37,078 bases of DNA. It comes from a virus (lineage: Duplodnaviria; Caudoviricetes). The position numbers were made by a program, and so were the translations under genes. Under the pieces are notes generated by a model. That model was not told where the DNA came from. It worked only from the letters and a program-made list of their open reading frames with translations, and did not search any database. The stretch spans positions 1-37,078 of the IMG/VR virus record IMGVR_UViG_3300009103_000082; one strand, 5' to 3'. Of this stretch, positions 9,058-26,418 are shown piece by piece. Position 1 is the stretch's first letter; each line of letters opens with the position of its first letter.

Positions 9058-10205
9058 TTTAATTTAATTGCCATACCTGCATACTGAGAAGTACTGGTAC
9101 TTGGCAAAACACTCCAAGTAGTGAGAGCGCCAATTTGTACAGGAGAAGAGTAATCAGTGGTATTACCTTGAGCTAACTGACCATAGCTATTTCTACCCCA
9201 AGCCCATAAAGCGCCGTCAGTTGTAATGGCGTGCATAAATTGGTTTCCAGCCATTATCTTAGACCATGTAGTCAGAGTGCCTACCTGAACAGGCGAGGAA
9301 TAATTAGTGGTATTGCCGTGACCTAATATTCCATAATCTCCAGCACCCCATGTCCAAAGCTTACCGTCAGTCCTTATAGCCGCACCAACTCCATCATCGG
9401 TTTGCCCACCAGCATAAATAGCATCCCATGTAGTAAGTGCGCCCACTTGTATCGGGGAGCTTTTATCGACAGTGGTTCCGTCACCTAATTGGCCTTTCAT
9501 ATTTCTACCCCAAGACCAAAGTGTTCCGTCTGTTTTCTTAGCCAATACAAAATATTTTCCAGCCGAGACTGCTTCCCATGTAGTGAGAGCGCCAACTTGA
9601 ACCGGAGAAGAATAACTAGTTGTATTACCTTGGCCTAGTTGTCCATACTGGTTTTTACCCCAAGCCCACAGAGTTCCGTCTGTTTTAAGGGCAATACCAA
9701 ATCTATATCCAGAGGATAGGTATAACCAATCAGTCAATGCGCCGACCTGTGTAGGAGAGGAACGACCCGTGGTATCACCTACACCTAACTGCCCGTCCCC
9801 ATTACCACCCCAGCTCCATAGCGTATTGTCTGTTCTAATTGCACCACCGTGGTACTCACCCGATCCAAGTTGTAACCAAGTGGTAAGTGCGCCAACTTGT
9901 TTTGGAGAAGAATAAAGACTTGTATTACCTAGTCCTAAACATCCATTAGCGCCGCTACCCCACGCCCATAGCGTACCATCTGTTTTAATTGCCGTTGAAT
10001 ATATATACCCCGCTGACAGAATAAGCCAATCAGTCAATGCCCCGACTTGTACTGGAGAAGAGTAGTTAGTGGTGTTTCCTTGACCTAGTTGACCTTTATT
10101 GTTATGCCCCCACATCCATAGCTCTCTAGCTGGGACAAACCACGTACCAGCACCCTCAGCTTGCATAACAGTGGGTAATCTCCACTTACCAGAATAATTA
10201 GGCAT
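9054..10205 (-). CDS. RCC1/BLIP-II repeat beta-propeller protein
   Basis: Same seven-repeat pattern as 6068-7288. Confidence 0.9.
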   Translation of the reverse strand: MPNYSGKWRLPTVMQAEGAGTWFVPARELWMWGHNNKGQLGQGNTTNYSSPVQVGALTDWLILSAGYIYSTAIKTDGTLWAWGSGANGCLGLGNTSLYSSPKQVGALTTWLQLGSGEYHGGAIRTDNTLWSWGGNGDGQLGVGDTTGRSSPTQVGALTDWLYLSSGYRFGIALKTDGTLWAWGKNQYGQLGQGNTTSYSSPVQVGALTTWEAVSAGKYFVLAKKTDGTLWSWGRNMKGQLGDGTTVDKSSPIQVGALTTWDAIYAGGQTDDGVGAAIRTDGKLWTWGAGDYGILGHGNTTNYSSPVQVGTLTTWSKIMAGNQFMHAITTDGALWAWGRNSYGQLAQGNTTDYSSPVQIGALTTWSVLPSTSTSQYAGMAIKLK

Positions 10206-10214
10206 TGCTTACCC

Positions 10215-10254
10215 CTGTGTATAACTCTGTGTATAACTCTGTGTATAACTCTGT
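10215..10254 (-). repeat. 3.3 x 12-bp tandem repeat CTGTGTATAACT, each full unit containing a DnaA box (TTATACACA on the minus strand)
   Basis: TGTGTATAA at 10216-10224, 10228-10236 and 10240-10248; matches the TTATNCACA consensus; intergenic. Confidence 0.7.
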
Positions 10255-10261
10255 TTTCATA

Positions 10262-11680
10262 TTAGGATGTAACAAGAACGCCCACCGAAACCGTCTTATT
10301 GTTCGCTGGTAATTTACTCCAAGTGGTTAAGGCTCCGATCTGAACTGGGGAGCTTATCTGGGTAGTAGTACCATTCCCTAGAGCCTCACCATTTCCCCAT
10401 GCCCACAGTGTTCCGTCTGTTTTAATAGCATAACTCGTCTTCCTTCCCCCAGAAACACTAGACCAAGTAGTCAATGCACCTATCTGTACCGGAGAACTAC
10501 GATCAGTAGTGCTTCCATCGCCCAGTTGCCCCTTAGTATTTTCACCCCAAGTCCACAGAGTGCCATCAGTTTTAACAGCCATTGACCACTCTGAATTAGC
10601 TTGATCTGTTTCACTTCCAGGCCCGATAGTGGCCCATGTGGTAAGTGCGCCTACCTGAACTGGTGAAGAGTAATCGGTAGTATTGCCTTGGCCTAACGCA
10701 CCAGAGCCACCTTCGCCCCAGCACCAAATAGTACCGTCTGTTTTAAGAGCCATTGTGAAAAAAGCGCGAGAACTCGTTTTAGACCACGTAGTAAGAGTGC
10801 CTACTTGTACCGGAGATGAACGATTGGTAGTGCTTCCATCACCTAATTGGCCGACATTGTTTTTCCCCCAAGCCCAGAGAGTTCCATCAGTCTTAACGGC
10901 TGTCATAAAGTGCATACCGCCAGATACTTGCGACCAATCAGTAAGCGCACCTACTTGGACAGGGGAAGAACGGTTAGTTGTAGTTCCGTCACCTAATGCT
11001 CCCTCATAATTCCATCCCCATGTCCATAATGTGCCGTCTTGTCTAACTGACCCAACATTATAAAAACCTGGCCCTATCGAAGCCCAAGTAGTTAATGCAC
11101 CAACTTGCACAGGGGAAGAAATGTCAGTAGTAGAACCGTTACCTAGCCTACCGTAACCACCATCCCCCCAACTCCATAGTGTCCCGTCAGTTTTAACAGC
11201 CACCCCCGTAACATCACAAAAACCAACCTCCTGCCAATCGGTAAGTGCGCCTACTTGTACAGGCGAAGAATAAGCAGTGGTATTTCCTAAGCCTAAATCG
11301 CCATCAACATTATTTCCCCACACCCATAGCTCATAGGCGTAGGCCGCTTGGTAACTATTACTTGCGGCACTTATACCGCTCGGCCCGTAGTCATTAATAG
11401 CGGTAACAGTGGTAGTGTAAGATTGACCGTCAGTTAAACCTGTAATCGTAACAGGAGAAGATGTCCCGCTTCCGGCAAAACTTGCGCCAGTAACGGTATC
11501 GGTAGCTACTGCCTCATAACTGGTTATCGCACCACCACCCACATCTGAAGGCGCAGTAAAAGCTATAGAGATTGCTAAACTGCCCCCTGATGAAGCTGTC
11601 CCAATAGTGGGTGCATCCGGCGCTAATAACGGATTAAAACCAGGGCGTATAAACCCACCAATACGGTCACCTATAGGCAT
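10262..11680 (-). CDS. Fibronectin type III + RCC1 repeat protein
   Basis: N-terminal FN3 (APDAPTIGTA..FTAPSDVGGGAITSY..ITGLTDGQSYTTTVTAINDYGPS) followed by seven RCC1 repeats. Confidence 0.9.
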   Translation of the reverse strand: MPIGDRIGGFIRPGFNPLLAPDAPTIGTASSGGSLAISIAFTAPSDVGGGAITSYEAVATDTVTGASFAGSGTSSPVTITGLTDGQSYTTTVTAINDYGPSGISAASNSYQAAYAYELWVWGNNVDGDLGLGNTTAYSSPVQVGALTDWQEVGFCDVTGVAVKTDGTLWSWGDGGYGRLGNGSTTDISSPVQVGALTTWASIGPGFYNVGSVRQDGTLWTWGWNYEGALGDGTTTNRSSPVQVGALTDWSQVSGGMHFMTAVKTDGTLWAWGKNNVGQLGDGSTTNRSSPVQVGTLTTWSKTSSRAFFTMALKTDGTIWCWGEGGSGALGQGNTTDYSSPVQVGALTTWATIGPGSETDQANSEWSMAVKTDGTLWTWGENTKGQLGDGSTTDRSSPVQIGALTTWSSVSGGRKTSYAIKTDGTLWAWGNGEALGNGTTTQISSPVQIGALTTWSKLPANNKTVSVGVLVTS

Positions 11681-11690
11681 CGCCTACTCC

Positions 11691-12086
11691 TTAACTAATT
11701 ACTTCATAGCTTACAGTGTAGGTAATCTTGCTTGCAGTCCCGCTCGTCACAGCAATCGAACTGTCTTCCATTAAGTAGATCGCAGTAGTCTTGTCTACAA
11801 CAATCAAGGAAGCATCTGCCGGAACTGAAACAGTAGACACAATAGGATAAGCTGTACCACCTGAAGGGGCAGAACCCTGAGCCACATCCCCGTCACTGTA
11901 GAGGTCAACGCTCACGTTTACAGCACTGCTTCCGTCTACATTGGCAGCTACTATCTGATTAATTTTGTAAACCTTTCCGCTGCTTGCAGCATTAGGAAGC
12001 AAAATAACCGAGGTAGTTGCCGAGGGAGTCAGGTAAGTAGTCTCACCTAAGATGCTTGTTACATTTACTATATTGGGGTTTGCCAT
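11691..12086 (-). CDS. Conserved phage tail-region beta-rich protein (MANPNIVNV type)
   Basis: 131 aa; GGAGG RBS; beta-strand-rich; sits between the fibre and RCC1 genes. Confidence 0.6.
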   Translation of the reverse strand: MANPNIVNVTSILGETTYLTPSATTSVILLPNAASSGKVYKINQIVAANVDGSSAVNVSVDLYSDGDVAQGSAPSGGTAYPIVSTVSVPADASLIVVDKTTAIYLMEDSSIAVTSGTASKITYTVSYEVIS

Positions 12087-12095
12087 TATTTCCTC

Positions 12096-12629
12096 CTAGA
12101 AACCCATTACCATCGCTAATGCGATAGAAAGCCCTGCTGATACACCAGTTGAGGCTGTTGACTGCCATGTAGTCCCGTTTGATGTGAGTAAGTTACCCGA
12201 AGTACCAGGAGCAACTTCTTGAACTGCTGATGTGCCATTACCAAGAACGACACTGTGCTGGGTTATGGAAGCTGCTCCAGTTCCCCCGTTAGCAACAGGA
12301 AGAGTTCCCGTCACTCCTGTAGTTAAGGGAAGCCCCGTCAGATTAGTAGCTACGCCACCCGAAGGAGTGCCAAGCGCACCCCCACTAACAAGAACATCTG
12401 CCCCGCCTTCCTGTAAATTTCCGGTAAAGTTTGCTGTGGTGTCGGCATAGGCCGCATAACCAGCAGTTCCAAGGGTGTAATACGCAAGTGAAGTCCATGC
12501 TGTAGAACCATCACCAGACTTGAGCTTCTTTGTGTCTGTCTCAAGACCCAATTCGCCATTTGAAAGTGTTGGATTAGCAGAAGTCCAGTTTGCGGCTGTG
12601 TCTCTGCGAATTTGAATTTTACTAGCCAT
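12096..12629 (-). CDS. Short tail-fibre protein with an Mtd/hyaluronidase-type N-terminal domain
   Basis: IQIRRDTAANWTSANPTLSNGELGLETDTKKLKSGDGSTAWTSLAY; GTLPVANGGTG fibre motif; C-terminal SIALAMVMG. Confidence 0.75.
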   Translation of the reverse strand: MASKIQIRRDTAANWTSANPTLSNGELGLETDTKKLKSGDGSTAWTSLAYYTLGTAGYAAYADTTANFTGNLQEGGADVLVSGGALGTPSGGVATNLTGLPLTTGVTGTLPVANGGTGAASITQHSVVLGNGTSAVQEVAPGTSGNLLTSNGTTWQSTASTGVSAGLSIALAMVMGF

Positions 12630-13282
12630 TATGCTGACCCTCCATCTATTAACGGAATACCTGTGTAATTTGAAGTTGCTGTACCGCCGTCTACACTTGC
12701 CGATCCAGCAAGTGCGTCAATGGCTTGTTTGACACGCAGGGGTGAGAAAATCTTACCAGTTGTTTCTGTTCCTGCTTCTGCCTCTGCCTGTGTTGCAAGG
12801 TCATAAGCACCGGAAACCGAAATAAAAGAGAGCGTACCTGACCCGTTGGTGGAAAGGACGGTAGACGCATCGCCATCTGCTGTAGGATAAGCTAACCCGC
12901 CAGCGGTTAAGTTCGTTGTTGCTAGAGTTGTAAGGCTGGATGTACCTGTACCCGTAATATTTCCGGTTACATCACCAGTTACATCACCAGTGACATCACC
13001 AGTGACATTTCCGGTTACATTTCCTGTAATTGCGCCCGCAAAATTAGTGGTCGCAGTAATTACCGTACCGCTAATAGTTCCAGAAGAAGTAATCCCAGTA
13101 GATGATAAAGCACCAGTGGTAACGCTAGAAGGATTTGTCCCTAACTCAATGACTGTTGCAGAGTTATTTTCAGTGAACAGGCGTTTATCAGCGGTATTGA
13201 CCGCTAACTCGCCTTCTACCAAATCCGAACTGCTTGGAACTGCGCTTGCGCTGCTAGAGTTCTTTGTAACAATAGTTGCCAT
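12629..13282 (-). CDS. Tail-fibre / structural protein
   Basis: VPSSSDLVEGELAVNTADKRLF motif; (G-N/D-V-T)n repeats; ATQAEAEAGT..SPLRVKQAI fibre motif. Confidence 0.75.
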   Translation of the reverse strand: MATIVTKNSSSASAVPSSSDLVEGELAVNTADKRLFTENNSATVIELGTNPSSVTTGALSSTGITSSGTISGTVITATTNFAGAITGNVTGNVTGDVTGDVTGDVTGNITGTGTSSLTTLATTNLTAGGLAYPTADGDASTVLSTNGSGTLSFISVSGAYDLATQAEAEAGTETTGKIFSPLRVKQAIDALAGSASVDGGTATSNYTGIPLIDGGSA

Positions 13283-13299
13283 GCTTTGCTCCGTTAATT

Positions 13300-13328
13300 A
13301 AAAAATCGGGGGGAAATTAATCCCCCCC
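13300..13328 (-). terminator. Rho-independent terminator after the major capsid gene
   Basis: Minus-strand stem GGGGGGA / TCCCCCC with a short AT loop, followed by a T tract. Confidence 0.75.
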
Positions 13329-13344
13329 AAAGGATCAAAGGAGA

Positions 13345-14295
13345 TTAAGCATTTACAACCATGTTAAATGCTGCATCAGGACGATAGGTTTTAACGCCAT
13401 AAATAGTATCAGCGGTAAACAACGTACCTAACCACTCCTGCTTGTACTGGGTCTGAGAGCGAATATTTTGCTGTTCAGCAAGAATAAAGGCTTCCTTGTG
13501 GAACAAGGTTGCTGCTTTAAGCTCACCGCCAGCACTATTTTCTGACGCAGTCTCAGTAACAGAACAGTTGGTAGAAACATAAATGTCTATGCCATAAATG
13601 TTTCCGATCTTGCCGTTTTGTACGCCTCGTCCGTCAACAAAGTCAGAAGAAACATAACGGTCAATACCCATCATAGTCGAACGCAAAGAAGGTGGAACAA
13701 CAAAGTATCTTTCATCGAAAGGTACGTCATTGTCATCCATCAACTTAATAAGACCCCTAAATGACGCATCGGTGACGAGGTCTGAAGTTGTTACGGTGTC
13801 GACTGCATAGGCAGTTAAACCAGAAGAGGCATCAGTGTAGTAAGAACCAGAACCAACCCAGTTATCACTGGCATCACCAATGTTCTTACCTTCGTTGTGG
13901 AGGTCTACGTCCGTCTGGGTAGCAAGCGCATAGCCAGCATCCTCGGTATAGAATCCTCTCATAGAAGCTAATGCTTGAATTTCAGCAACATCTTCCATCA
14001 GCTTTGAATACTCGTAGTGCTTGTTAATTGCAACCTGCACTTCGCTTTCTGTATTCGCCTGAACAGTGACCGCCGTTTTTGCTGCTTTGGCAGTCGCCGA
14101 ACCCCTGGTGGGAGCTGGTATATGGATGGTGTCGCCCTTCTTACCTACCATGGGTAGCCGTTTTACAAGGCCAGCCATTACTAGGCGTTTTTCGTATGCA
14201 GCGCGTATTTCATCACTCCATAGCTCGGGTATAAAATTTGCCTGAGTAGTAGTATCACTAAAACCACCCGTGGCTGGATATACTGAAGTAGCCAT
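13345..14295 (-). CDS. Major capsid protein
   Basis: 316 aa; FIPELWSDEI..GKKGDTIHIP..VPFDERYFVVPP..GKIGNIYGIDIYVS..DTIYGVK pattern; follows the scaffold and precedes a terminator. Confidence 0.9.
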   Translation of the reverse strand: MATSVYPATGGFSDTTTQANFIPELWSDEIRAAYEKRLVMAGLVKRLPMVGKKGDTIHIPAPTRGSATAKAAKTAVTVQANTESEVQVAINKHYEYSKLMEDVAEIQALASMRGFYTEDAGYALATQTDVDLHNEGKNIGDASDNWVGSGSYYTDASSGLTAYAVDTVTTSDLVTDASFRGLIKLMDDNDVPFDERYFVVPPSLRSTMMGIDRYVSSDFVDGRGVQNGKIGNIYGIDIYVSTNCSVTETASENSAGGELKAATLFHKEAFILAEQQNIRSQTQYKQEWLGTLFTADTIYGVKTYRPDAAFNMVVNA

Positions 14296-14312
14296 CGTTT
14301 AATTCCTCAAAA

Positions 14313-15098
14313 TTAATTACGAATTACACGACCCTCAAGGTATGCCCGTTCAATTTCTGAACTTCGATCTGCATAGGCTTGCGGGTCTTCATTTTTGAGT
14401 CTTCTTAAATCGGATGCCCTGTACTTCTTCTTGCTTACGGGTTCTGAGCTACCTGTTGCGCTGCCTGTTGAAGCAGCCCTTACAGACGCAGAACGGGTGG
14501 ATTTTTCAACTGGCTTTTCACTTATGGCATTTGCGCGTTTCCATTCGTTAAAAATGTAATTAGCACTTTCAATGTTCATGTCGTGATTAGCTTCGTTAAA
14601 TAACCTCATCCTCGTATTATCTTGAGAAATCCAGTCTATAAACTTCTGATCCTGTACGATTTGCACCATATCAGGATGCCTTGCCATGATTTGCTGTGCA
14701 GCATTCTGCTGTTTAAGCTGCAACAACTCCTCTTGCGTCTGTTTAAGAGCTGGGTGTTCCTCTATAGATTGCTTGATAGCACGTTCAGGATCACCAAAAT
14801 AATCTAACTCTTCTTTAGGCTCGGCTGACTTTTGTTCTTGGAGCTGGCCCTGGATAAAAGTATCTGCTTGTTTGTACGCATCAATTTGCTGTCTAGCATC
14901 TCTAACTTCTTGAGACTGCCTTCCAATCATAACTTCTTGATCTGAAAGCATTTTTTCCAAATCTTCGCGTGACTTTGAAGCAAATTTAGATTCAGGCTCA
15001 GGAGGGCTTTCAGGGGCTTCCCCCTCAGTGCTTATCTCCTCTACGGATGCCGCCTCTACATTATCTTCGGACTCTTCGTTTAAAAGTTTTGCTGCCAT
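14313..15098 (-). CDS. Capsid scaffolding protein
   Basis: Acidic N-terminus, coiled coil, C-terminal 'LKNEDPQAY..EIERAYLEGRV'; directly upstream of the capsid gene. Confidence 0.75.
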   Translation of the reverse strand: MAAKLLNEESEDNVEAASVEEISTEGEAPESPPEPESKFASKSREDLEKMLSDQEVMIGRQSQEVRDARQQIDAYKQADTFIQGQLQEQKSAEPKEELDYFGDPERAIKQSIEEHPALKQTQEELLQLKQQNAAQQIMARHPDMVQIVQDQKFIDWISQDNTRMRLFNEANHDMNIESANYIFNEWKRANAISEKPVEKSTRSASVRAASTGSATGSSEPVSKKKYRASDLRRLKNEDPQAYADRSSEIERAYLEGRVIRN

Positions 15099-15147
15099 AA
15101 TTAACCTCGGAAATTACAAGACCTATCGGCTACCTTGTTGCGAAAGA

Positions 15148-15381
15148 CTACGAGTTAGCTACCTTCCGCTCTGCTTTGATTCTTTCTTGCCGCATTTTAG
15201 CCCACTTCATCGTAGCAGTAGGATAATCCCCACTAATCGGATCAATAGCTAAACTGGGACAAGAAACTACTCTGGTTGACTCTTGATTGCAGATGTCACA
15301 AGTATCTTGATAAACAGATTCATCTACAAGCCTTTCTACATAATGCCCATCAGGACATTTAAAGTCATAGATTCTTTTCAT
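15148..15381 (-). CDS. FmdB-like zinc-ribbon protein
   Basis: IYDFKCPDGH..TCDICNQESTRVVS. Confidence 0.75.
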   Translation of the reverse strand: MKRIYDFKCPDGHYVERLVDESVYQDTCDICNQESTRVVSCPSLAIDPISGDYPTATMKWAKMRQERIKAERKVANS

Positions 15382-15601
15382 CTTCGTTTACCAATAACTC
15401 AACCTGAGTTTCTAAAGAAGCTATAAAGGCGATAATATTTAATTGTCCCTTACGGAACTGCAAATCATCGTTGTCTTTAGTCGCTTCTACTGAATTACAT
15501 TCTTCCTTACTTTTGGATAAATCCTCTAGTAATATTTTCCAGCCTTTAGTACGAAACATATCGTACATGGCTTCAACATATTTTTCAGTCTCCTTATCCA
15601 T
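15365..15601 (-). CDS. Small conserved head-region protein
   Basis: 78 aa; 'MFRTKGWK..LQFRKGQL' pattern commonly found downstream of podovirus portals. Confidence 0.65.
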   Translation of the reverse strand: MDKETEKYVEAMYDMFRTKGWKILLEDLSKSKEECNSVEATKDNDDLQFRKGQLNIIAFIASLETQVELLVNEDEKNL

Positions 15602-15605
15602 ATTA

Positions 15606-15633
15606 AATTAACATAAGTCCCTATTAACGAACA
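15606..15633 (-). other. dif/Xer-like recombination site (putative)
   Basis: Minus strand TGTTCGTTAAT-AGGGAC-TTATGTTAATT; XerD arm 10/11 to TTATGTTAAAT; degenerate XerC arm; fills most of a 33-bp intergenic gap. Confidence 0.45.
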
Positions 15634-15634
15634 A

Positions 15635-17695
15635 TTAGTTATTTAATTGCATCTTTCTGTTTTCAATATTAACTCGTTCCTGTTCAACGCCTAAACGCTC
15701 CTGCTCAATCCCTAGCTTTTGTTCGTCTACAAGCGTATCGGCTATCTTAGCCCTTCTCATAAATTCATCTTTATCCATCTCGCCTTCGGCTTTCATTGTT
15801 GTTGCCAAAGCCTTGAGTCTGTCATTTTCCAGATCAATCGGAATAGCCTTGGTTTCTGTGGCAATCTTACCAGCTCTGGCCTGAGATTCCGCAGCCTGAC
15901 CATTAAGCGCATTCGTCTGAGATTGCTGAAATTGTAACTGTGATTGCTGTGCCACCTGTGCCATTTCCTGTGCTTGAGGATCGGGCTGTGAAGCCTGTTC
16001 AATCGCTTGCATTAACTGTTCCCTGTTTTGAAGCTGCATATTATCAACAATAGATTGAACCAGAATCGGATACATTGGAGATTCCTGCCCCATAGTCTGA
16101 AGTAGCTGAACCAACTGCGTTACTTCGTATTCACGGGCAATAATTCCTAGTGTGGAAGTGACTTCAAAAATGTAGTCATTAACTGGGTAGTTTTCAGGGT
16201 CAAACTGCATATAACGACAAGCAGCACTTTTAACAAAAGGAATTAAAAAACTGTCTTGGAAGTTAATAAGAGTTCGCTTATGACGCTTAATGATTGCGCC
16301 TAAGTTCATGCTTATGCCAGCAGCAGTAGCTTCACCATTGATAGAACCTGGAACACCAGCCGAATCGATTGCACCAGTGGCAGTCTGCACCATTCTCTGC
16401 AAAGACTCAGCTTGAGCAAAGGTAATCTGTGAAACCTGCCCGAAATTAAAGGGCTGTAAGACTTCTCTTGGATCACCCGTGGTTAATAATATCTTTCCTG
16501 CCCTGACTTCAGGCCTTGCCCCTCTTGGCATTCTGGTTGCATCCATAGCCACCATAGGCGCATTGGTTAAAGCTAACGCATCAATTCTGGCCCTTAATTC
16601 AGCATCGAGAGCCTTTTGAGAGTTATAGCCCTTTTCGCAAACGCCTCTTCCCCAGAACCTTCCTGGTACTACATCCCAAGGGAAAGCGATAACAGGTCTG
16701 TCACCCATCATGTAAGGATTTAACTGTGCTTTTAAAATAGTTGTTTTATTAGCGATGACAACACAGGCTTCAACGTAATAGCTTTCTTTTACTTCAACCT
16801 CTACTTCTACCTCTACATCATCTTCAACAATTTCTTCAACACCGTCTTCAATAGTTTCTTCAAGGCTTTCTTCTGTTTCTTCAAAATCTATATCTTCGGT
16901 ATGCTCTTTAATCAAGTAGCGTGGAACAAGCCCATAATATTTTGTTAAACGGACTTTGTTTTCAGGCTCCTGAGATAAGTTTGGATCAGCTTCTAAAGCA
17001 TCATCTCCGTAAGTCTGAGCATAGAACTCAACATCTTCATAAACACCCTGCTCCTGCAACAGCTTAATGGTATGCGGAGAAACGTATTCATCAATCGCTA
17101 CACCAATGGAGTCTTCTACGCTCGTTGCAATCGGGTCTATTAGGAAATTCTGAGGAAGAACGGGCTTTAGCTTAACTACCATCCTTTCGGTTTCATTAAC
17201 CCCAAAGGCTTGCATAGTCCCATCTGGCATGGGCTGGGTAGCAGGGGCAAGCTCTGTATCCATGTCCATGACAATCTCTGCAATGCCTGTGCCAAAAACA
17301 GCAGCATTAATCAGGCATTCGCCTACCTGCTTACGAATCTTGTGCTTTCTGAAGTCTTCGTTAAGTTTTGCCCTTAGATAAGCTATGTCCTGACTTTCAG
17401 GGTCACGCATATCATCACGAATCGTAAAGAAAGCTCCACGACCAAAGGTTGCTTCTTCTATTTCGGCTACGCTGGACTCGACCGCTTGTTGTAAGGCAGG
17501 ACTTACTATCTCGGAGCGTTCACTCGGGCGCGTTTTATTGTCAGGATTAAAATGTCCACGCCAGAGATCATAGTATTCTTCAAACTTCTCTTCATAGTTG
17601 GAATTATAATGTTCGCGCCACTTTTCACATTTAGCGATTACCCAGCTTTCAAGGGATTCGCTTTCATAAATGCTGTCATCGAATAGTTCGTCCAT
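15635..17695 (-). CDS. Portal protein
   Basis: 686 aa; follows TerL; FGTGIAEI, PGRFWGRGV, ETAAGISM-like motifs; long Q-rich helical C-terminal barrel as in P22-type portals. Confidence 0.9.
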   Translation of the reverse strand: MDELFDDSIYESESLESWVIAKCEKWREHYNSNYEEKFEEYYDLWRGHFNPDNKTRPSERSEIVSPALQQAVESSVAEIEEATFGRGAFFTIRDDMRDPESQDIAYLRAKLNEDFRKHKIRKQVGECLINAAVFGTGIAEIVMDMDTELAPATQPMPDGTMQAFGVNETERMVVKLKPVLPQNFLIDPIATSVEDSIGVAIDEYVSPHTIKLLQEQGVYEDVEFYAQTYGDDALEADPNLSQEPENKVRLTKYYGLVPRYLIKEHTEDIDFEETEESLEETIEDGVEEIVEDDVEVEVEVEVKESYYVEACVVIANKTTILKAQLNPYMMGDRPVIAFPWDVVPGRFWGRGVCEKGYNSQKALDAELRARIDALALTNAPMVAMDATRMPRGARPEVRAGKILLTTGDPREVLQPFNFGQVSQITFAQAESLQRMVQTATGAIDSAGVPGSINGEATAAGISMNLGAIIKRHKRTLINFQDSFLIPFVKSAACRYMQFDPENYPVNDYIFEVTSTLGIIAREYEVTQLVQLLQTMGQESPMYPILVQSIVDNMQLQNREQLMQAIEQASQPDPQAQEMAQVAQQSQLQFQQSQTNALNGQAAESQARAGKIATETKAIPIDLENDRLKALATTMKAEGEMDKDEFMRRAKIADTLVDEQKLGIEQERLGVEQERVNIENRKMQLNN

Positions 17696-17696
17696 A

Positions 17697-18941
17697 TCAA
17701 TACCCTGCTACGGAGTCTAAAAGTTCGTGATCATCGAACTCATATTCTGGTTGGTAAGTTATCTTTTGAAGTTGGTCAATATACGCTAATGCGTCAACGC
17801 AGTCATCATGCGTCAATATATCGGGGAACTGATAAAGCTCGTCCAAAAAAACATCGTTCCATTCTCCCCGATTTAATTTAATCTTCCCGTTTTCAAAACG
17901 TCCCTGTAAAGCCCACATAACACGATCAGTCTTGCTTTTATTTCCATGCGTTAGTTCTTCGATTTTAAAATACCTGTTGTATTGGCGCATAAGGTCTGTC
18001 AAAGGGCTAATTACTGCCTGTTTCGCAATGCCCCTTTCAATCCCTACCGAAATAGGCTCATAGTCCCTAACTACCTGGAATATCTTAATAGCGGTCTGGT
18101 TTAAGTCCCACCGCCCATAAATAATGTCTTTAACCCACCAACCGTGTTCATTTACCTTAACAACCGCTATAGCCGTATTATCAAGTCTGGTGTTTTTGGT
18201 TTTGGGCTTGTTCATTTCAGCAAACCCCGCAAGGTCAGCCGCTACATAATATTCACCACCCATAGGTTCTTTTTCGTCAAAGATTACCCATTCTTCCTTA
18301 AAGACCTCACTGCCTCTGGCTTCAAAAGAAGCCATGAATTCCTGCCGAAAAGCGTAAGAGGACATAGACTTCTTAGCCCCGTCAATCTCCGCTTTATCCA
18401 GAAGGCTGTTGTCATAGCTCGTATAATGCCAAGACCTGTAACCCTCTGTTTCTTCAGCTTGTTTGTAAAGCTCGTAAAAATGGTTACGCCCTATAGGTGT
18501 TCCAATAAACAAACAACCACCCCTTAAGTCAGTCAGCGCAGGTCTTAATATGGATTCCCACACTTCAGGCTTCATGTCTGCGTATTCGTCCATAACCAGA
18601 TAAAACAGGCTTATACCCCGCATAGTCTCTGGCCTGTCAGCCCCTTTGAGCGAGATAATAATATTGTTGGTCAGGGTGATCTGCATATTGTTGACATGAG
18701 AAGCCTTAATCACTTCACTTCCCAGTTCAAGCAGCATATTCCACATAATGTCCCTAGCCTGACCTTGGGTTGGAGCCACATAGAAAATATGGCCTTTGTC
18801 AGTGCTAAGGGCTTTAACAAGCAGCAAATAAGCCGCTAGGCGGGACTTTCCAGTACGTCTTCCGGCAGCAACAACCTTGAAACGGCTGTCATCACCCCAG
18901 ACTTCTTCTTGCCAGGGCAATAAATTTATATCGAGTTTCAA
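17697..18941 (-). CDS. terL: Terminase large subunit
   Basis: Walker A AAGRRTGKS, Walker B LVMDEYAD, FIGTPIG, nuclease motifs ADLAG and HDDCVDALAY; the TTG start overlaps the TGA of the upstream 40-aa ORF. Confidence 0.95.
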   Translation of the reverse strand: MKLDINLLPWQEEVWGDDSRFKVVAAGRRTGKSRLAAYLLLVKALSTDKGHIFYVAPTQGQARDIMWNMLLELGSEVIKASHVNNMQITLTNNIIISLKGADRPETMRGISLFYLVMDEYADMKPEVWESILRPALTDLRGGCLFIGTPIGRNHFYELYKQAEETEGYRSWHYTSYDNSLLDKAEIDGAKKSMSSYAFRQEFMASFEARGSEVFKEEWVIFDEKEPMGGEYYVAADLAGFAEMNKPKTKNTRLDNTAIAVVKVNEHGWWVKDIIYGRWDLNQTAIKIFQVVRDYEPISVGIERGIAKQAVISPLTDLMRQYNRYFKIEELTHGNKSKTDRVMWALQGRFENGKIKLNRGEWNDVFLDELYQFPDILTHDDCVDALAYIDQLQKITYQPEYEFDDHELLDSVAGY

Positions 18942-19060
18942 CGGCTTCTACGGGATTTTCTTACGTTGGTCATTTTCTGCCCTGTCCGTTGAGCCTGCCT
19001 TCTAGCAGCCGCCTTTCCTTTGGCTGTATACGGATAATGCTTTTTACCGACTCTAGGCAT
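18938..19060 (-). CDS. 40-aa highly basic protein (not in ORF track)
   Basis: MPRVGKKHYPYTAKGKAAARRQAQRTGQKMTNVRKSRRSR; GAGGTG RBS; stop overlaps the TerL start (TTGA). Confidence 0.75.
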   Translation of the reverse strand: MPRVGKKHYPYTAKGKAAARRQAQRTGQKMTNVRKSRRSR

Positions 19061-19068
19061 ATCTCACC

Positions 19069-19248
19069 TCAATTTAATCTAAGATCACTAATAGACCACT
19101 CGCCCGTTTTGATAAAGGTTTCCCCTACATCAACCTGACGGAATTCTCTGGTCGATATGAATTTTCCTTCGTTATCCCTGTATTGGTACAAAGTAATAGA
19201 ACCGTCTTCATTATGGGTTTCACGGTAGGTGGTAACATCATCCTTCAT
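19069..19248 (-). CDS. 59-aa hypothetical protein (not in ORF track)
   Basis: MKDDVTTYRETHNEDGSITLYQYRDNEGKFISTREFRQVDVGETFIKTGEWSISDLRLN; overlaps the thermonuclease stop and fills the gap. Confidence 0.55.
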   Translation of the reverse strand: MKDDVTTYRETHNEDGSITLYQYRDNEGKFISTREFRQVDVGETFIKTGEWSISDLRLN

Positions 19249-19636
19249 GCTTTAACGCCTTTCGGTTAGCCAGATGTGCTTTTTGAATTTCCTTCTTGTT
19301 CTGTCCGGTATAGGGAACCGCTAACTTTTCCCTGATAAGGATTTTCGTAATAAATCCCTTTCCCGTTTTAAACTCACCCAAGTACCTTCCAAATTTTCCT
19401 TTCTTCGTTGTTCTAAGCGGGTAGGACTTGCCGAGCTGTAAATGTTCCTGAACGCATTTCTTTGCAAGTAATCCATGCGCTTTTTCCTGTTTATCTCTTG
19501 TGCGAGATTCGGGAGTATCAATACCAGCAAGACGTATACGCTGCTTATGAAGCCAGCAATCAAAACCAAGATTAATGTCGACATCTATCGTATCCCCATC
19601 AATAACCCTGACTATCGTAGCTTCGTACTCATACAT
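19238..19636 (-). CDS. Thermonuclease (SNase-like) family nuclease
   Basis: VRVIDGDTID..RIRLAGIDTPE..GKFGRYLG motifs. Confidence 0.9.
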   Translation of the reverse strand: MYEYEATIVRVIDGDTIDVDINLGFDCWLHKQRIRLAGIDTPESRTRDKQEKAHGLLAKKCVQEHLQLGKSYPLRTTKKGKFGRYLGEFKTGKGFITKILIREKLAVPYTGQNKKEIQKAHLANRKALKHEG

Positions 19637-19645
19637 AACAAATAC

Positions 19646-20071
19646 CTACACATCATCTTCCTCAATAGCCTGGACTTCTACTACCTCCTTCTCCTGAACC
19701 AACGAATTTACGTTAATTTGAATCTGGGGCTTCTCGGCCGTTCTAAGCTTGTTTTCGCTCCACCCTGCCTGAGTCTTGAGGAAAAAGATTGCGGCCGTTG
19801 TATCGCCTCCTATGGCTTTGTTGACCAGATTAGACGCTACTTCCGCGACCTTATCACTCTTGTGTTTTTTATACAGTGCAGCAACCTCTTCATCACGTTC
19901 CAGTATTTTAAAGAAAGTCCTGCGGGGAATCTTCAGGGAATCAGCAATCATATCAGTCGTTAAATAAGGAGCCATCCAAGTCAGCTTCTCCTTTTGCTCT
20001 TCAGTAAGCACAATCATCGGCCTACCGCCTAAATTCTTTTCAGGGGCTTTGTCAGGTACTAGGTCAGTCAT
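19646..20071 (-). CDS. terS: Terminase small subunit
   Basis: GGRP, HTH (IADSLKIPRRTFFK), AIGGDTTAAIFFLKTQAGWSE; first gene of the late arm. Confidence 0.8.
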   Translation of the reverse strand: MTDLVPDKAPEKNLGGRPMIVLTEEQKEKLTWMAPYLTTDMIADSLKIPRRTFFKILERDEEVAALYKKHKSDKVAEVASNLVNKAIGGDTTAAIFFLKTQAGWSENKLRTAEKPQIQINVNSLVQEKEVVEVQAIEEDDV

Positions 20072-20085
20072 GACATAACATCCTA

Positions 20086-20101
20086 TGTTCCACGTGAAAC
20101 A
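20086..20101. promoter_or_regulatory. parS: parS centromere-like site (ParB binding)
   Basis: TGTTCCACGTGAAACA (reverse complement TGTTTCACGTGGAACA), 16/16 match to the widespread bacterial parS consensus TGTTNCACGTGAAACA; intergenic. Confidence 0.85.
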
Positions 20102-20397
20102 ATATAATCCGAACTTTTAGAACTTTTCGACATATCTTGCGTTTTCCGAATAATACAAACCAGAAACCCGAACTACAAGCAGTTCACAGTTCCGGTTTTG
20201 TATGTGGGTGGGAACTATATAAATTAAGTAGGCCCGCGCCCCCTCCCCGTCCTCTTTTTCCGACCCCCTCAACATTAATGAACCTAAACTGTTGGTTCTA
20301 GTTTGTTGGGGAGTGCTTGAACTGACTGCAGAGAAAAGAAAGAGAGAGAGAAGTACCCAAAACAAACAAATGATTTATTAGAAAACGTAAATAATTA

Positions 20398-20426
20398 TTG
20401 ACCTGATGAAATGTTTAAACTAGAAT
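20398..20426 (+). promoter_or_regulatory. Sigma70-type early promoter
   Basis: TTGACC-N17-TAGAAT with an AT-rich upstream element; GTTTAAAC palindrome in the spacer. Confidence 0.8.
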
Positions 20427-20462
20427 CACTCTATCACTAAATAAAAGAGGATACTTATACAG

Positions 20463-21453: not shown

Positions 21454-21455
21454 CC

Positions 21456-22290: not shown

Positions 22291-22335
22291 GGAAAAAGGG
22301 GAAGTTATAACTTATTGAAACTACAGGAGAAAATT

Positions 22336-22707
22336 ATGTCTGATGATGATGATTTTGATACAACAGACCCGTTCAAACTATATCGAAGCGATGACCCAGA
22401 AACCTCAGCTATTGGGGCGCACATTGTCAATAGCGCACACTTGAAACAGATAGTGTATGCGATGGTTAAGGACTCTGGCATGAGAGGACTAACCCCGAAG
22501 GAAGCTGAAGTAGCCTACGAAAAGCTCTTAGGAAGAAGAGTTACTGGCGGGACAATTTCCGGCAGACCCAAAAATTTAGAAGAGGATGGTTTGATCTTTT
22601 ATTTGGGGGATAAGCGCGACAACAGCAGGGTTATGCGAGTCAAGGACTGGGATGGAAAGTTATTTTTAAACGCAGCCGGAGAAGCGGCTTTAATTGAGGA
22701 GAAATAG
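22336..22707 (+). CDS. Winged-helix DNA-binding protein
   Basis: Start moved to ATG 22336 (AGGAG RBS); RSDDPETS..GLTPKE..TISGRPKNLEEDGLI pattern of phage wHTH proteins. Confidence 0.65.
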   Translation: MSDDDDFDTTDPFKLYRSDDPETSAIGAHIVNSAHLKQIVYAMVKDSGMRGLTPKEAEVAYEKLLGRRVTGGTISGRPKNLEEDGLIFYLGDKRDNSRVMRVKDWDGKLFLNAAGEAALIEEK

Positions 22708-22905
22708 ATGAGCATAAGAGAAACCAACTTAATTGTTTTTTCGGCAGAAGAAGCGCAGTTGCTGAGGGATGTAATCACTCAGCCTCAATTAACTCAGGAA
22801 GCAGAACATTTGCGGGTTCTTGAACAGTTTATTTCGTCAACTCAGGATTTGATCGTTGATGAAATTAAAGTCTTTACAACTAAAGTTATAGAGGCTGACG
22901 CATGA
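22708..22905 (+). CDS. Hypothetical protein
   Basis: 65 aa; GAGGAG RBS; coupled to both neighbours. Confidence 0.65.
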   Translation: MSIRETNLIVFSAEEAQLLRDVITQPQLTQEAEHLRVLEQFISSTQDLIVDEIKVFTTKVIEADA

Positions 22906-23261
22906 GGAGAAGGGTGGCGTATTGCCAGCAGTTTGAAAGGTTTTGGGCGCGGGCAGACCCCTCACTTGGAGCAAAAGGAAGCAAGAAGGAGGCTTACGCA
23001 GCATGGGCATCTATGGTGGAGTCACAAGAGGACGCAGCTTTTATCATTCAAGCCTATGATGCTCAGGCACAAGCTAAGCGAGAGCTTAAAGGGAAGGGGC
23101 TTTTCTTTGCCCCATTCCCAAACCTATGCAGATACATAAAGCACGAGAGGTTCGATGATGGAATTGATCAACAGCAAAGCACCGGAACAAAAGATGATAG
23201 AAGAAAAGAAGAGTATCGCGCCTACCTGGAACACGCGAGAGCCAACTGGGGAGATACCTAG
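22902..23261 (+). CDS. Replication initiator (O-like / replisome organiser) C-terminal domain only
   Basis: FERFW..KGSKKEAYAAW..PFPNLCRYIKHERFDD matches the FxxFW..K..A..AW..P...WL...RWED motif of phage initiators. Confidence 0.65.
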   Translation: MRRRVAYCQQFERFWARADPSLGAKGSKKEAYAAWASMVESQEDAAFIIQAYDAQAQAKRELKGKGLFFAPFPNLCRYIKHERFDDGIDQQQSTGTKDDRRKEEYRAYLEHARANWGDT

Positions 23262-23568
23262 AGAGCTTTGGGCGCGGGTATGGGCTTCTTTGGAGCTAAG
23301 CGGCTTAGTTACTGATGGAGTAGCCAGTGCAACGTCAGAATTTTGGCGGTCAAACTGCAAGAAGTTTAGTAATCAAGCATTAATAGAGGGAGCTAAGCGG
23401 TCTACGAATTTTGATGGCGGAAAATTGACGCTTCCTAAATTCAAAAAACTCTGCTTTGAAAACACAGCGTTTAAACGCTACGCAAAAGAAGAGTTAGAGA
23501 GCAAGCCACTCCCAAAAGAAGAGATAAAAAAAAGAATAGCCGAGCTAAAAGCCGCCTTGAAGATATAG
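23155..23568 (+). CDS. Lambda P-like helicase loader (start uncertain)
   Basis: FWRSNCKKFSNQALIEG..LTLPKFKKLC..IAELKAAL; directly follows the O-like gene. Confidence 0.55.
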   Translation: MMELINSKAPEQKMIEEKKSIAPTWNTREPTGEIPRELWARVWASLELSGLVTDGVASATSEFWRSNCKKFSNQALIEGAKRSTNFDGGKLTLPKFKKLCFENTAFKRYAKEELESKPLPKEEIKKRIAELKAALKI

Positions 23569-23714: not shown

Positions 23715-23861
23715 ATGGGAAGAGTAAAAGAGGAGCTGTTAAGCGAAGCAGCTTGTTATGTTTGCGACAAAATATTGACGCATGAAGAGGAGAGCAAAGA
23801 GCTATGCTCTAAATGCGAAAACCAATCAGAGGAAGGAGAGCCAAATGCCAGTACAAATTAA
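23715..23861 (+). CDS. 48-aa zinc-finger protein (not in ORF track)
   Basis: MGRVKEELLSEAACYVCDKILTHEEESKELCSKCENQSEEGEPNASTN; CxxC-x13-CxxC; strong TAAGGAG RBS. Confidence 0.7.
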   Translation: MGRVKEELLSEAACYVCDKILTHEEESKELCSKCENQSEEGEPNASTN

Positions 23862-24444
23862 GGGCAAGCCATATGTAATGGTAAATGAGCGCTTAGAGCA
23901 TATTCGCTCACAAGGGGAAGAGTATTACATTGATACGAGCATACAGTACATCAGCGAAGATCAGTCATTAGTGATTATGAAAGCCACACTGTCCGACAAG
24001 GAGGGCAATGTTCTTTCTTCAGGTCACGCTCAAGAGAGCCAGTCAGACGCATCCTCAAAGGTCAATTCCACTAGCCACATAGAGAACTGTGAAACATCTG
24101 CTATTGGTAGATGCTTGGGCATCTATGGCATAGGCATAGATGGCTCTATAGCAAGCGCAGAGGAGGTCACTGACGCGATTATTAACCAGAAGGCTAATGA
24201 AGGTATAGCTAACGTGCTGGCTTGCTCTGAGGCTGCTAGGAGGCTGTTTGATGATGTTGTTGCTATCAAGGCGGGACTAAATGAGGCTGATGATACGCAC
24301 AGTATCGGTGATGCGGCGAGAGCTTGGTTTAATTTAGAGGAGTCAGACCAGAGGGCTTTATGGTTAGCCCCAAGCAAGGGTGGAATACTCACCACAGAAG
24401 AAAAGAGGAAATTGCAGTCATCACAAGTTAGAGAATCTATCTGA
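23845..24444 (+). CDS. Single-strand annealing recombinase (Rad52/Sak-like)
   Basis: Start moved to ATG 23845 (AAGGAG RBS); IKGKPYVMVNERL..SGHAQE..IENCETSAIGRCL..SIASAEEV; directly upstream of ssb. Confidence 0.7.
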   Translation: MPVQIKGKPYVMVNERLEHIRSQGEEYYIDTSIQYISEDQSLVIMKATLSDKEGNVLSSGHAQESQSDASSKVNSTSHIENCETSAIGRCLGIYGIGIDGSIASAEEVTDAIINQKANEGIANVLACSEAARRLFDDVVAIKAGLNEADDTHSIGDAARAWFNLEESDQRALWLAPSKGGILTTEEKRKLQSSQVRESI

Positions 24445-24457
24445 GTAAGGAGAAACA

Positions 24458-24916
24458 ATGAAAGGCTTAAATAAAGTATTGCTTATAGGAAATCTGGGGG
24501 CTGATCCAGATATTAGATACACCCAAGACAACGCGCCAGTGGCAAACTTCACTGTAGCAACCAATGAATATAGCAGCAAGAAGGAGCAGATAACCGAATG
24601 GCATAAGTGCGTAGCGTTTGGTAGAGCTGGAGACAAGAACAATTTGGTCGAGAGATATATCAAACCTTATCTAAAGAAAGGCAACTCGGTTTACATTGAG
24701 GGCAGTCTCCAAACCACAAGTTACACAGACAGAGATGGAGTTAAGAAATATTCCACTCAAATAGTCGTGCGGGAGCTGCAAGGCTTATCCTCCTCAGCTC
24801 AGGGTGACTCTCAAGAAGCGCCGCCGAAACCCGCCGAAACCCGCCAAGAGCCGCCACAAGAAGCGGCCCAACAATTTAATCCAAGTGAGGACTTTGATGA
24901 TGACATACCCTTCTGA
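24458..24916 (+). CDS. ssb: Single-stranded DNA-binding protein
   Basis: LNKVLLIGNLGADP..TEWH..VYIEGSLQT; acidic tail DFDDDIPF. Confidence 0.97.
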   Translation: MKGLNKVLLIGNLGADPDIRYTQDNAPVANFTVATNEYSSKKEQITEWHKCVAFGRAGDKNNLVERYIKPYLKKGNSVYIEGSLQTTSYTDRDGVKKYSTQIVVRELQGLSSSAQGDSQEAPPKPAETRQEPPQEAAQQFNPSEDFDDDIPF

Positions 24917-25133
24917 CATACACCTGGGAAGGTGTATTAATATCGCGCATTCCATTAAGGACATTAAAAAAACTTTCATGGCTAAAGCCATAGGGGTTAC
25001 TGTTCAAAGGTACAGCAACATACTTAAAGACCCGAACCCAAGAATCCAGATTGCGCTTCAAGTATGCAATGTTTTGGGGATTAGTTTGGAGGAGCTGATT
25101 AGCTATGGTAACAAGCACGATAGTAACAAATGA
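24897..25133 (+). CDS. XRE/Cro-like HTH regulator
   Basis: Start moved to ATG 24897 (GAGGA RBS); MAKAIGVTVQRYSNI..NPRIQIALQVCNVLGISLEELI. Confidence 0.75.
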   Translation: MMTYPSDIHLGRCINIAHSIKDIKKTFMAKAIGVTVQRYSNILKDPNPRIQIALQVCNVLGISLEELISYGNKHDSNK

Positions 25134-25575
25134 AAAAGACCTAAAGACTTGCAGCGATTCAATCAGGAAAATTGTAAAAAAGTCAGGACATTGTTCGGTA
25201 GCTTTCTCCTCTCAAGGGATGAAGTGCGAAGAGTTTGTTTTGAGAGGGCTTCCCCAAAACGCCTTATTTCATATATGGATAAGGGATGCGGCAGAAGCAG
25301 CGTTTGAGCAAGAGCCTACAGAGGTAGAGCTGGAGGGGATGAAAAGATACGTCAAGCAAAAATGCTATACACAAACCAAGCAAAATTTTTTAGTTCAATC
25401 GCTTGCAAACCCAAAGACAAAAGAAACTAGGCTGGATTTAACCTCAAGCTCTAAGTGGCTAAAGGGAGAAATGACTTTTGTTTTGGATTGGATGCAAGCG
25501 TTCTTTGCGGAGCAGGGTCTAATCCTAGAGGCAAAAGGCGAATATATAGAGCTTGTGGAAGCCCAGAGCAAATGA
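25105..25575 (+). CDS. NinB/Orf-like recombination protein
   Basis: RGLPQNALFHIWI..SSSKWLKGEMTFVLDWMQAFFAEQGLIL. Confidence 0.7.
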   Translation: MVTSTIVTNEKDLKTCSDSIRKIVKKSGHCSVAFSSQGMKCEEFVLRGLPQNALFHIWIRDAAEAAFEQEPTEVELEGMKRYVKQKCYTQTKQNFLVQSLANPKTKETRLDLTSSSKWLKGEMTFVLDWMQAFFAEQGLILEAKGEYIELVEAQSK

Positions 25576-25703
25576 AGATCATTGTTGAGATTGAGGAAGA
25601 TGAAGCAGAAGAACTGAAGGATATGCTTAGAAAACTGGCAGAATTAGAGGAAGTCTTGGAAGAGTTACTAGAAAAGGTTTCAGAGGAAAAAGGAGAAGAA
25701 TGA
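25572..25703 (+). CDS. 43-aa acidic coiled-coil protein
   Basis: MKIIVEIEEDEAEELKDMLRKLAELEEVLEELLEKVSEEKGEE; ATGA overlaps at both ends. Confidence 0.65.
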   Translation: MKIIVEIEEDEAEELKDMLRKLAELEEVLEELLEKVSEEKGEE

Positions 25704-26005
25704 GCAAATACAAATCAACAGAACCTAGAGCTACACATACTTGTACTTGTTACGGGGGCTTGAAAGAGCAAGAGTATTATTATTGGGATCGCAACCGTCC
25801 TTTCGGTTATTTAGTAATGGATTTGGTAGGGGTCACAGGTGGATTGAAGCTAGATGAAGACTTTTATGATTTAGACGAAATGGAACAATACGATGTAATG
25901 CAAGATTGGGTGATTACCTTGGAGTCGGAGTTTGACAAAACAAAATTACGCTACAACAAAAGATTCAAGCGGAAAAAGGAAAAGAGCGCAGAATGCCCAG
26001 ATTAA
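25700..26005 (+). CDS. Hypothetical protein
   Basis: 101 aa; AGGAG RBS; coupled to neighbours. Confidence 0.6.
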   Translation: MSKYKSTEPRATHTCTCYGGLKEQEYYYWDRNRPFGYLVMDLVGVTGGLKLDEDFYDLDEMEQYDVMQDWVITLESEFDKTKLRYNKRFKRKKEKSAECPD

Positions 26006-26418
26006 AAGTAACCCCCGCAGACCTCTGGTTTTCCAAGTGCATTAGAGAAGCAGCAGCATGGAAGTGCCAGTGCTGCGGCAAGCAATACGAAGAGGGAACC
26101 CAAGGGCTACACTGCTCACACTATTTCGGAAGAAGGGCTAACGCCGTTAGGTACTGCCCTGACAACGCTTTCGCCCATTGTTTCGGTTGTCACCAGAGGC
26201 TAGGAGCTAACCCAGATGATTTCCGATCTTGGGTTGCTGAGAGGATAGGGGAAGGAATGATTGATGTTCTTAGGGAAAAGCGGAATGACATAGGGTTAGC
26301 CAAATCAATTAAAAAGAACCTGAAGGATGTAGCCAAGCATTACAAAGCTGAATACGAAAGACTTAAATCAAAAAGGCTTCAAGGAGAAATGGGAGAGCTT
26401 GAGGTTTTTGAGTATTAA
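25993..26418 (+). CDS. NinG/Rap-like HNH junction endonuclease
   Basis: ADLWFSKCIR..CQCCGK..HCSHYFGR..VRYCPDNAFAHCFGCH. Confidence 0.85.
   Translation: MPRLKVTPADLWFSKCIREAAAWKCQCCGKQYEEGTQGLHCSHYFGRRANAVRYCPDNAFAHCFGCHQRLGANPDDFRSWVAERIGEGMIDVLREKRNDIGLAKSIKKNLKDVAKHYKAEYERLKSKRLQGEMGELEVFEY

Follow-up and report, generated by a model that had tools for sequence, protein, structure and literature searches.

The window analysed here is the whole of the virus record IMGVR_UViG_3300009103_000082 (37,078 nt), which is complete and carries direct terminal repeats. Its late arm on the minus strand and its early arm on the plus strand are separated by a 391-bp divergent gap in which a parS word is located (Table 1). 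The first-pass annotation had reported neither an integrase, ParA/B, Xer nor a helicase, and this was borne out: profile searches of the window gave no match to an integrase, ParB_N, ParA or a resolvase, and neither a helicase nor Xer was found among the 48 ORFs. The same searches, which had been put forward as a way to uncover a phage-encoded integrase or partition system, turned up none, and the window has none of the partition or resolution genes of its own that characterize a plasmid prophage. An Rfam search of the window returned zero matches. There is no close cultured relative, with TerL and the capsid protein below 60% identity. Matches of the SSB lean to Gammaproteobacteria at 35-48% identity only, which is only suggestive of a gammaproteobacterial host; together with the marine origin of the runs, they argue against a spore-forming host. 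Assignment of a host through MAGs was rejected, as the six MAG contigs fall in five unrelated groups and look like binning strays. Two RNA-run assemblies have pieces over the late genes, which is no proof of transcription.

Table 1. Features of the 37,078-nt window discussed in the text.
Feature	Position	Strand	Remarks
12-bp tandem repeat, 3.3 copies, three DnaA-box matches	10215..10254	-	between two RCC1-repeat genes
Zn-ribbon gene	15148..15381	-	without parS in the window; sister-group homolog contains one
dif-like stretch, XerD arm only	15606..15633	-	between portal stop and next start
Terminase small subunit (terS)	19646..20071	-	phrog_309, E 9e-11; this type marks the main parS-bearing lineage
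Gene-free divergent gap between late (-) and early (+) arms	20072..20462		contains parS, promoter-like sites and the family G-rich motif
Single host-type parS palindrome	20086..20101		exact 16/16 match; kept in L277-L280
G-rich motif, conserved upstream of terS across the family	20239..20248	-	found at 46/80 TerL loci
Winged-helix-like protein	22315..22707	+	winged-helix folds among its Atlas look-alikes (TM 0.55-0.66); low-confidence model
O-like initiator C-terminal domain and overlapping downstream ORF in helicase-loader position	22902..23568	+	phrog_9474, E 7e-5
Lambda-type recombination block	23782..26418	+	annealing-protein-like ORF, SSB, Cro/CI-type HTH, NinB, NinG

The parS lies 14 bases upstream of the terS start codon and, like chromosomal sites, is a 16-bp palindrome that matches what we take to be the chromosomal parS consensus. 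It had been described as a 16/16 site within the late arm; the word is exact and in place, but the gap that holds it is the divergent one between the arms. Comparison with shuffled intergenic sequence, suggested at the same time, came out in favor of the site, with 0 of 300 gap-only shuffles reaching parS within 2 mismatches.

Two further expectations, that the motif would be conserved in syntenic gaps or reappear elsewhere, both held for parS. In close relatives (L277-L280), whose fourfold sites are just 52-84% identical, it stays ahead of terS amid indels; L277 keeps all 16 positions although only 4 of the 14 spacer positions to terS are identical, and L280 has a reverse-complement variant adjoining a long deletion. 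Exactly one copy is present in each of the four near-complete genomes with this type of terS (G000, G041, G099, and G100), and the remaining seven near-complete family genomes have none. In the sister phages (TerS 58-66% identical), parS is absent from the terS promoter and is found approximately 5 kb downstream inside the Zn-ribbon gene, where it is written in three codings (VSRET, VSHGT, and VPRET), each codon run having a probability of 0.004-0.006 under the codon usage of the window. The corresponding figure of 20/80 Zn-ribbon genes is biased because the search was seeded with a parS-bearing protein. No parS was seen in G042 and short terS fragments, but their coverage does not extend to the Zn-ribbon gene. 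G101 has an additional parS in the adaptor gene, in another reading frame; its contig, which carries an integrase at the far end, appears to be chimeric, joining two phage modules, and G101 is at most a possible integrated relative. With a relaxed parS core, 37 of 216 family stretches (a redundant set) were matched, never with two copies, and the reversed control gave 0. A weak ParB_N-like ORF lies next to a methyltransferase in G099, with no Pfam match at 1e-4, and is absent in four of the five genomes tested, including the window. As with chromosomal-type parS, the word is conserved as DNA whatever its position or reading frame, and both its position and its orientation are free. Judged from these comparisons, the parS at 20086-20101 is real and under selection, and because relatives keep it even where it has moved or been written into genes, it likely docks host ParB.

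Of 151 bacterial genomes, 19 contained the exact word, compared with 0 for the control, and five of the six loci inspected lie beside parB, parA, mnmE/G or rsmG; the word marks bacterial origin regions. The VSHGT-type word is rare in bacteria (1/151, beside recF/gyrB). Extrapolation from 1/64 parts gave approximately 7,900 viral stretches holding the parS word versus 20 for the reversed word, an excess of about 400-fold, and ParB_N is encoded by 2 of 49 parS-bearing viral records. Contamination with host DNA was rejected as the origin of these viral words, since virion or packaging matches were found at 25 of 46 loci sampled from 134 (1-2 long ORFs each), the others being undecided. A literature search confined to main texts and covering few subscription journals turned up nothing on marine phages that carry a host-type parS.

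A reading of parS as a pac site or terS operator is disfavored because parS relocates while the G-rich motif remains. The latter is a candidate packaging or genome-end signal. Contig starts cluster somewhat around it (13 of 32 within approximately 600 bases), which is too weak to fix the genome end. The DnaA-box arrays of relatives are placed directly outside this motif.

The other two motifs of the first-pass annotation fared less well, in line with its ranking of parS as strong, the DnaA boxes as moderate and the dif-like site as weak, which proved right. The three tandem DnaA boxes reported at 10216-10248 are present on the minus strand (TTATACACA at 10216, 10228, and 10240), but they are copies of a single perfect 12-bp unit repeated 3.3 times and hence not three independent matches; the cluster of consensus boxes expected of a DnaA origin is there, though by one triplicated 11-bp box in a 56-bp gap within a variable tail cassette. 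The repeat is also covered, without a gap, by X5, a contig from another study. Of 300 gap shuffles, 14 contained one strict 9-mer and 2 the 11-mer with flanks; genome-wide, the figures were 48% and 2.5%, respectively, of 200 Markov shuffles. The repeat is absent from L277 and L278, which show no match to its flanking genes in their tail region, and no array was found in G041, G099 or G100. A scan of viral contigs for repeats with a 13-bp period gave 8 matches, which are no test of conservation because the period in the window is 12 bp. Other family members have 2-10 DnaA boxes beside terS, and the two array-bearing relatives that were annotated both encode their own polymerase and primase-helicase. 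The repeat at 10215..10254 is a possible DnaA site.

Of the 28-bp Xer-like site claimed at 15606-15633, the stretch and a XerD arm matching at 10 of 11 positions stand, but the XerC core does not: instead of an inner CGYATAA across a 6-bp spacer, the window has CGTTAAT, with 4 mismatches over the 18-position core. As many XerD-arm matches arose in 39 of 100 whole-window shuffles, and a full site as good in 46 of 60 (19 of 300 when only the gap was shuffled), while dif-core matches within 2 mismatches were found in 88 of 121 bacterial genomes. Conservation of the gap (32/33 and 29/33) equals that of its neighbor (47/49 and 44/49), and the stretch is neither above chance nor selectively conserved. 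A dif function was rejected on the chance-level score, the missing XerC core and the ordinary conservation, and the stretch is probably no more than the usual spacing between the portal stop and the start that follows it.

The O-like initiator had been noted to lack an N-terminal DNA-binding domain. Its similarity to replication initiators is indeed confined to their C-terminal part. Immediately upstream, however, is a distinct winged-helix-like gene whose product, judged from a low-confidence structural model, may bind DNA as a partner of the initiator. The next ORF downstream of the O-like gene has no informative match in Pfam, PHROG or PDB, and its likeness to lambda P was not established (hhalign probability 0.8% and 2.9%). 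Folding of the gap at 22080-22320 is weak (z -1.7).

ParB-CTP loads at parS, slides, and connects DNA to ParA and SMC. Host ParB very probably binds the parS of the window. Our preferred explanation, to which we assign a probability of roughly one half, is that the single host-type parS, on a phage with no detectable partition genes, loads host ParB, which would position or segregate the phage genome, not integrated, while infection is slow or paused. A ParB clamp loaded at this one site would place the phage genome on the nucleoid, and a stalled genome would pass into a daughter cell ahead of lysis. Replication would start from the phage O-like module with host enzymes, and the three DnaA boxes would not serve as its origin; their repeat would be an accessory docking site at most and the dif-like stretch would have no role. 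A single parS is reported to be enough for segregation in P. aeruginosa (PMC10419367). The interpretation originally put forward is retained in part: the use of a host protein through parS is well supported, whereas the joint mini-chromosome reading of three motifs is unsupported because the motifs do not travel together, the two annotated array-bearing relatives encode their own replication genes and the dif-like core fails.

Sequence alone cannot tell positioning from titration or protection. Replicating phage copies that outnumber host parS sites might instead drain ParB and stall segregation, division or initiation control in favor of the burst, as a position-free site and the upset of replication control and division on parB loss (PMC8494293, PMC10419367) would allow; a sink would benefit from arrays, whereas none of the 37 parS-bearing family stretches has more than one copy. 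We regard such titration as a secondary possibility, and it may arise as a by-product of positioning. A stable plasmid-like prophage that relies on DnaA for initiation, on ParB for segregation and on XerCD for resolution, the full three-part mimic, is unlikely. The absence of an integrase, the HTH gene, the rarity of the 11-mer DnaA box in gaps (2/300), the XerD arm kept in L277, L278, and L280 (with a changed spacer in L280), and the use of dif motifs by integrase-less gokushoviruses (PMC7062461) speak for it. Against it, parS-bearing relatives have neither a DnaA array nor dif and array-bearing relatives have no parS, the dif-like stretch is no better conserved than the next gap and has no XerC core, and the DnaA repeat occupies a short gap within a variable cassette.

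It is about equally doubtful that a ParB coat, or SMC loading directed by ParB, disguises the phage circle as a chromosome against nucleases or SMC-type plasmid defenses, a link to defense that comes from general background. One site anywhere would suffice for this, and parS is reported to instruct SMC loading (PMC8494293). Repression of the late operon by ParB or a phage protein at parS is less probable still: parS adjoins a weak promoter-like match (20130 to 20101, 9/12), but the sister phages lack parS at the terS promoter and carry it approximately 5 kb away, and the word is a bacterial parS and not a phage-specific one. Silencing of neighboring genes by ParB-type proteins, a known effect, would suit such an operator. 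A chance or neutral origin is the least probable of all; the motifs were chosen after the sequence had been seen, which probably accounts for dif and perhaps for the DnaA repeat, but for parS the gap shuffles, the excess over the reversed word and the three codings already refute it.

Plasmid prophages such as P1 encode their own ParA/ParB, a cognate centromere and a resolvase. The window phage would share with P1 an unintegrated persistence, as proposed here, but none of the P1-type maintenance genes was found in it. A closer parallel is provided by phi29 and Nf, whose parS sites are reported to be read by host Spo0J/ParB (PMC2731898). As in those phages, a host-type parS lies in cis and no cognate parA or parB is on the phage; reading by host ParB is what we propose for the window. 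As described there, phi29 has five parS sites that serve prespore entry in a sporulating host, whereas the window phage is marine, has one, is unrelated in its packaging and replication, and has a likely proteobacterial host that would not sporulate. The proposed loading of host ParB is best read as a non-sporulation variant of the phi29 parS trick. The chromosomal ParABS-SMC centromere (PMC8494293, PMC10419367) uses the same 16-bp origin-proximal word, intergenic or within genes; in contrast, the window is a 37-kb phage without parA/parB in cis. Clusters of perfect DnaA boxes are also known on phages, from in silico arrays in T5 (bioRxiv 10.1101/866236) to the 5 and 4 boxes at the record ends of the T7-like phiEap-1 and vB_ShiP-A7, but in the window the boxes form nothing other than a tandem repeat, located in a gap between tail genes approximately 10 kb off the family position. 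The gokushoviruses resemble the window phage in being integrase-less with a 28-bp stretch in a short non-coding gap; in the account of PMC7062461 they need both arms, whereas the window lacks the XerC inner arm and the lineage does not retain the site throughout.

For uncultured phages, lifestyle is called from genes such as integrase or parAB, and a 16-bp host site depends on no gene and can lie concealed within a coding region. With its three codings, one parS offers a clean basis for silent mutants. If confirmed, use of ParB outside spore-formers would provide a testable mechanism and a marker for pseudolysogeny in slow-growing marine bacteria. More tentatively, this abundant marine family may treat host maintenance sites as swappable hooks, with the parS lineage recoding even its own genes to accommodate the one site and riding host ParAB-SMC through cell division as an unintegrated carrier, and sister lineages using DnaA arrays at the packaging end. 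If true, ocean phages that have no integrase and seem lytic would possess a concealed route of vertical inheritance that needs no maintenance gene of their own.

The parS in the window is real: it matches the consensus exactly, and none of 300 shuffles of its gap gave a match within 2 mismatches. Among 151 bacterial genomes from the same phylum as an alphaproteobacterial MAG, the same word was found in 19 and the reversed word in none, and five of the six bacterial loci inspected adjoin parB, parA, mnmE/G or rsmG. Viral contigs contain approximately 7,900 stretches with the consensus, as estimated from 1 of 64 parts of the collection, versus 20 with the reversed word, and a ParB search found ParB_N in 2 of 49 viral parS-bearing records drawn from 134 loci. 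In ten of 46 sampled viral loci (L090, L110, L121, L124, L134, L137, L149, L153, L154 and L160), the terminase large subunit lies within ~4 kb of parS.

Because no parS within one mismatch was present in the fetched loci of the best 80 TerL relatives (66–75% identity), the site is not a family trait. Its distribution tracks the terS type of the window: all four near-complete genomes of this type carry exactly one parS, and none of the seven other near-complete family genomes carries any. The close relatives L277–L279 (TerS 93%) retain parS before terS with indels on either side, while L280 (TerS 83%) has a reverse-complement variant adjoining a long deletion, with fourfold-degenerate sites down to 52–63% identity. 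The sister group (TerS 58–66%) lacks parS before terS and carries it instead at one codon position in a Zn-ribbon gene, where it is read as VSRET in G041, VSHGT in G043 and G100, and VPRET in G099; given the peptide, the probability of the codon run is 0.004–0.006 for each. A FastTree phylogeny of TerL with 110 distinct sequences puts the two placements into different clades. A parS variant in G101, sister to the window's clade, lies inside the adaptor gene in a different reading frame; this contig looks chimeric. Judging from these comparisons, parS is under selection as DNA. Being single and not tied to any one position, orientation or reading frame, it behaves as a loading site would, rather than as an operator or a pac site. 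At the same Zn-ribbon codon position, L301 and L302 of a neighbouring clade have a 13/16 match, which may be a decaying or half parS.

Positions of features in the window and in other phages
Feature	Position	Strand	Content
parS	20086–20101		
DnaA trio	10216–10248, in repeat 10215–10254		
dif-like site	15606–15633		
G-rich motif	20239–20248	-	upstream of terS
Late arm		-	terS, terL, P22/SU10-type portal, capsid, tail genes
Early arm	20463–26418	+	O-like initiator fragment, annealing-protein-like ORF, SSB, HTH, NinB, NinG
RCC1 and sulfotransferase genes, variable tail region	6068–11680		sulfotransferase-domain gene among three RCC1-repeat genes
Small basic ORF	18938–19060	-	40 aa, directly before terL; conserved in L277 and L280
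Gene-free stretch	21858–22314		457 bp before winged-helix gene; 248 bases 84% identical in G041; candidate origin or regulatory RNA
ParB_N-like ORF	G099:C1:12872–13600		adjoins DNA methyltransferase
parS, distant family member (TerL 54%)	G046:C1:237–252 (L121, L265)		perfect; ~220 bases outside G-rich motif
DnaA arrays, family	1.3–1.8 kb upstream of terL		L031, L032, L035–L038, L043, L045, L047, L052, L070 and others
DnaA boxes, phiEap-1 (T7-like)	L376:70–170		5 perfect, unannotated; record end
DnaA boxes, vB_ShiP-A7 (T7-like)	L377:20–140		4 perfect, unannotated; record end

The first-pass annotation had joined parS with DnaA boxes and a dif-like site, an observation that was confirmed in part. 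The DnaA trio consists of 3.3 identical copies of a single 12-bp unit that take up a 56-bp gap ending in the ribosome site for the RCC1 gene that follows, and the repeat is present in a separate assembly too. Gap shuffles yielded the unit with its flanks in 2 of 300 cases and the bare 9-mer in 14 of 300, and the unit with flanks is similar to arrays of the phage family. The closest relatives show no match to the window's tail cassette and no DnaA boxes in their loci, and no array was found in G041, G099 or G100. The boxes are ambiguous; DnaA would bind the repeat at about even odds, and its service as an origin seems improbable. Arrays of two or more perfect boxes lie just outside the G-rich motif in 12 of the 37 loci covering that region (at least four boxes in nine), against a background of 14 boxes in 769 kb; these arrays may be the stronger finding when set beside the trio. 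G024 and G035, the two annotated genomes with 2–3 boxes, encode DNA polymerase A and a primase-helicase and therefore have little need of an origin run by the host. In T5, 8 boxes were located in silico at the injection-stop region (excerpt of bioRxiv 10.1101/866236), and since these genomes and T7-like phages have them, phage DnaA boxes do not imply plasmid-like carriage. Several microviruses were among the matches to the array query, and related phages of another group (L368–L372, L375) show paired matches 13 bp apart at a gene start near the packaging region.

The dif-like site was rejected as an Xer site. Its inner arm reads CGTTAAT, with 4 mismatches over the core; of 121 bacterial genomes, 88 have dif matches, and most of these matches carry CGYATAA as the inner XerC arm. 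Shuffling the whole window produced an equal or better site in 46 of 60 cases, and shuffling the gap did so in 19 of 300. The site is kept in L277, L278 and L280, no better than the neighbouring gap, and is absent from the sister group. In L280 the spacer is altered and the XerD arm unchanged, which counts in favour of dif function; gokushoviruses need both arms (PMC7062461, in the part consulted).

The record is complete (37,078 bp) with direct terminal repeats, and marine runs contain the phage, for which no close cultured relative was found. As first annotated, no tyrosine integrase, ParA or resolvase emerged when the window and four relatives were searched; ParB_N gave a single weak match, in G099, probably part of a DNA-modification module. 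SSB matches lean towards Gammaproteobacteria, and AGGAG ribosome sites are clear at the early genes. The O-like ORF does resemble only the C-terminal half of HTH-bearing initiators, but an upstream winged-helix-like gene could supply DNA binding. An ORF overlapping its end occupies the helicase-loader position, a pairing retained in G041 and G042; comparison did not establish likeness to lambda P. We infer a lambda-type start using the host helicase, which would leave no need for DnaA initiation.

ParB dimers load with CTP at parS, slide, and link DNA to ParA and SMC (excerpt of PMC8494293), and a single parS suffices in P. aeruginosa (excerpt of PMC10419367). We propose, with a probability of about 0.5, that host ParB would load on the injected genome at parS and place it on the nucleoid, so that a genome which stalls or replicates slowly would be retained and handed on until lysis. 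That parS is instead a sink for ParB is rather unlikely. The original interpretation is supported in part: borrowing of a host protein through parS survives, but the full mini-chromosome is improbable, and camouflage is equally improbable. An operator is more doubtful still, given a single parS with free position, orientation and frame, and chance is very hard to credit for parS against the gap shuffles, the reversed-word contrast and the three codings.

Phage phi29, with five parS sites, relies on the host's Spo0J for entry into the prespore (PMC2731898, in the part consulted). The window phage likewise borrows a host-type parS but belongs to a different family, and spore entrapment is unlikely. 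Our literature search returned no report of a borrowed host parS in marine phages. To this precedent the window's lineage contributes a single parS relocated and recoded three ways, and parS and DnaA arrays are kept apart in different lineages.
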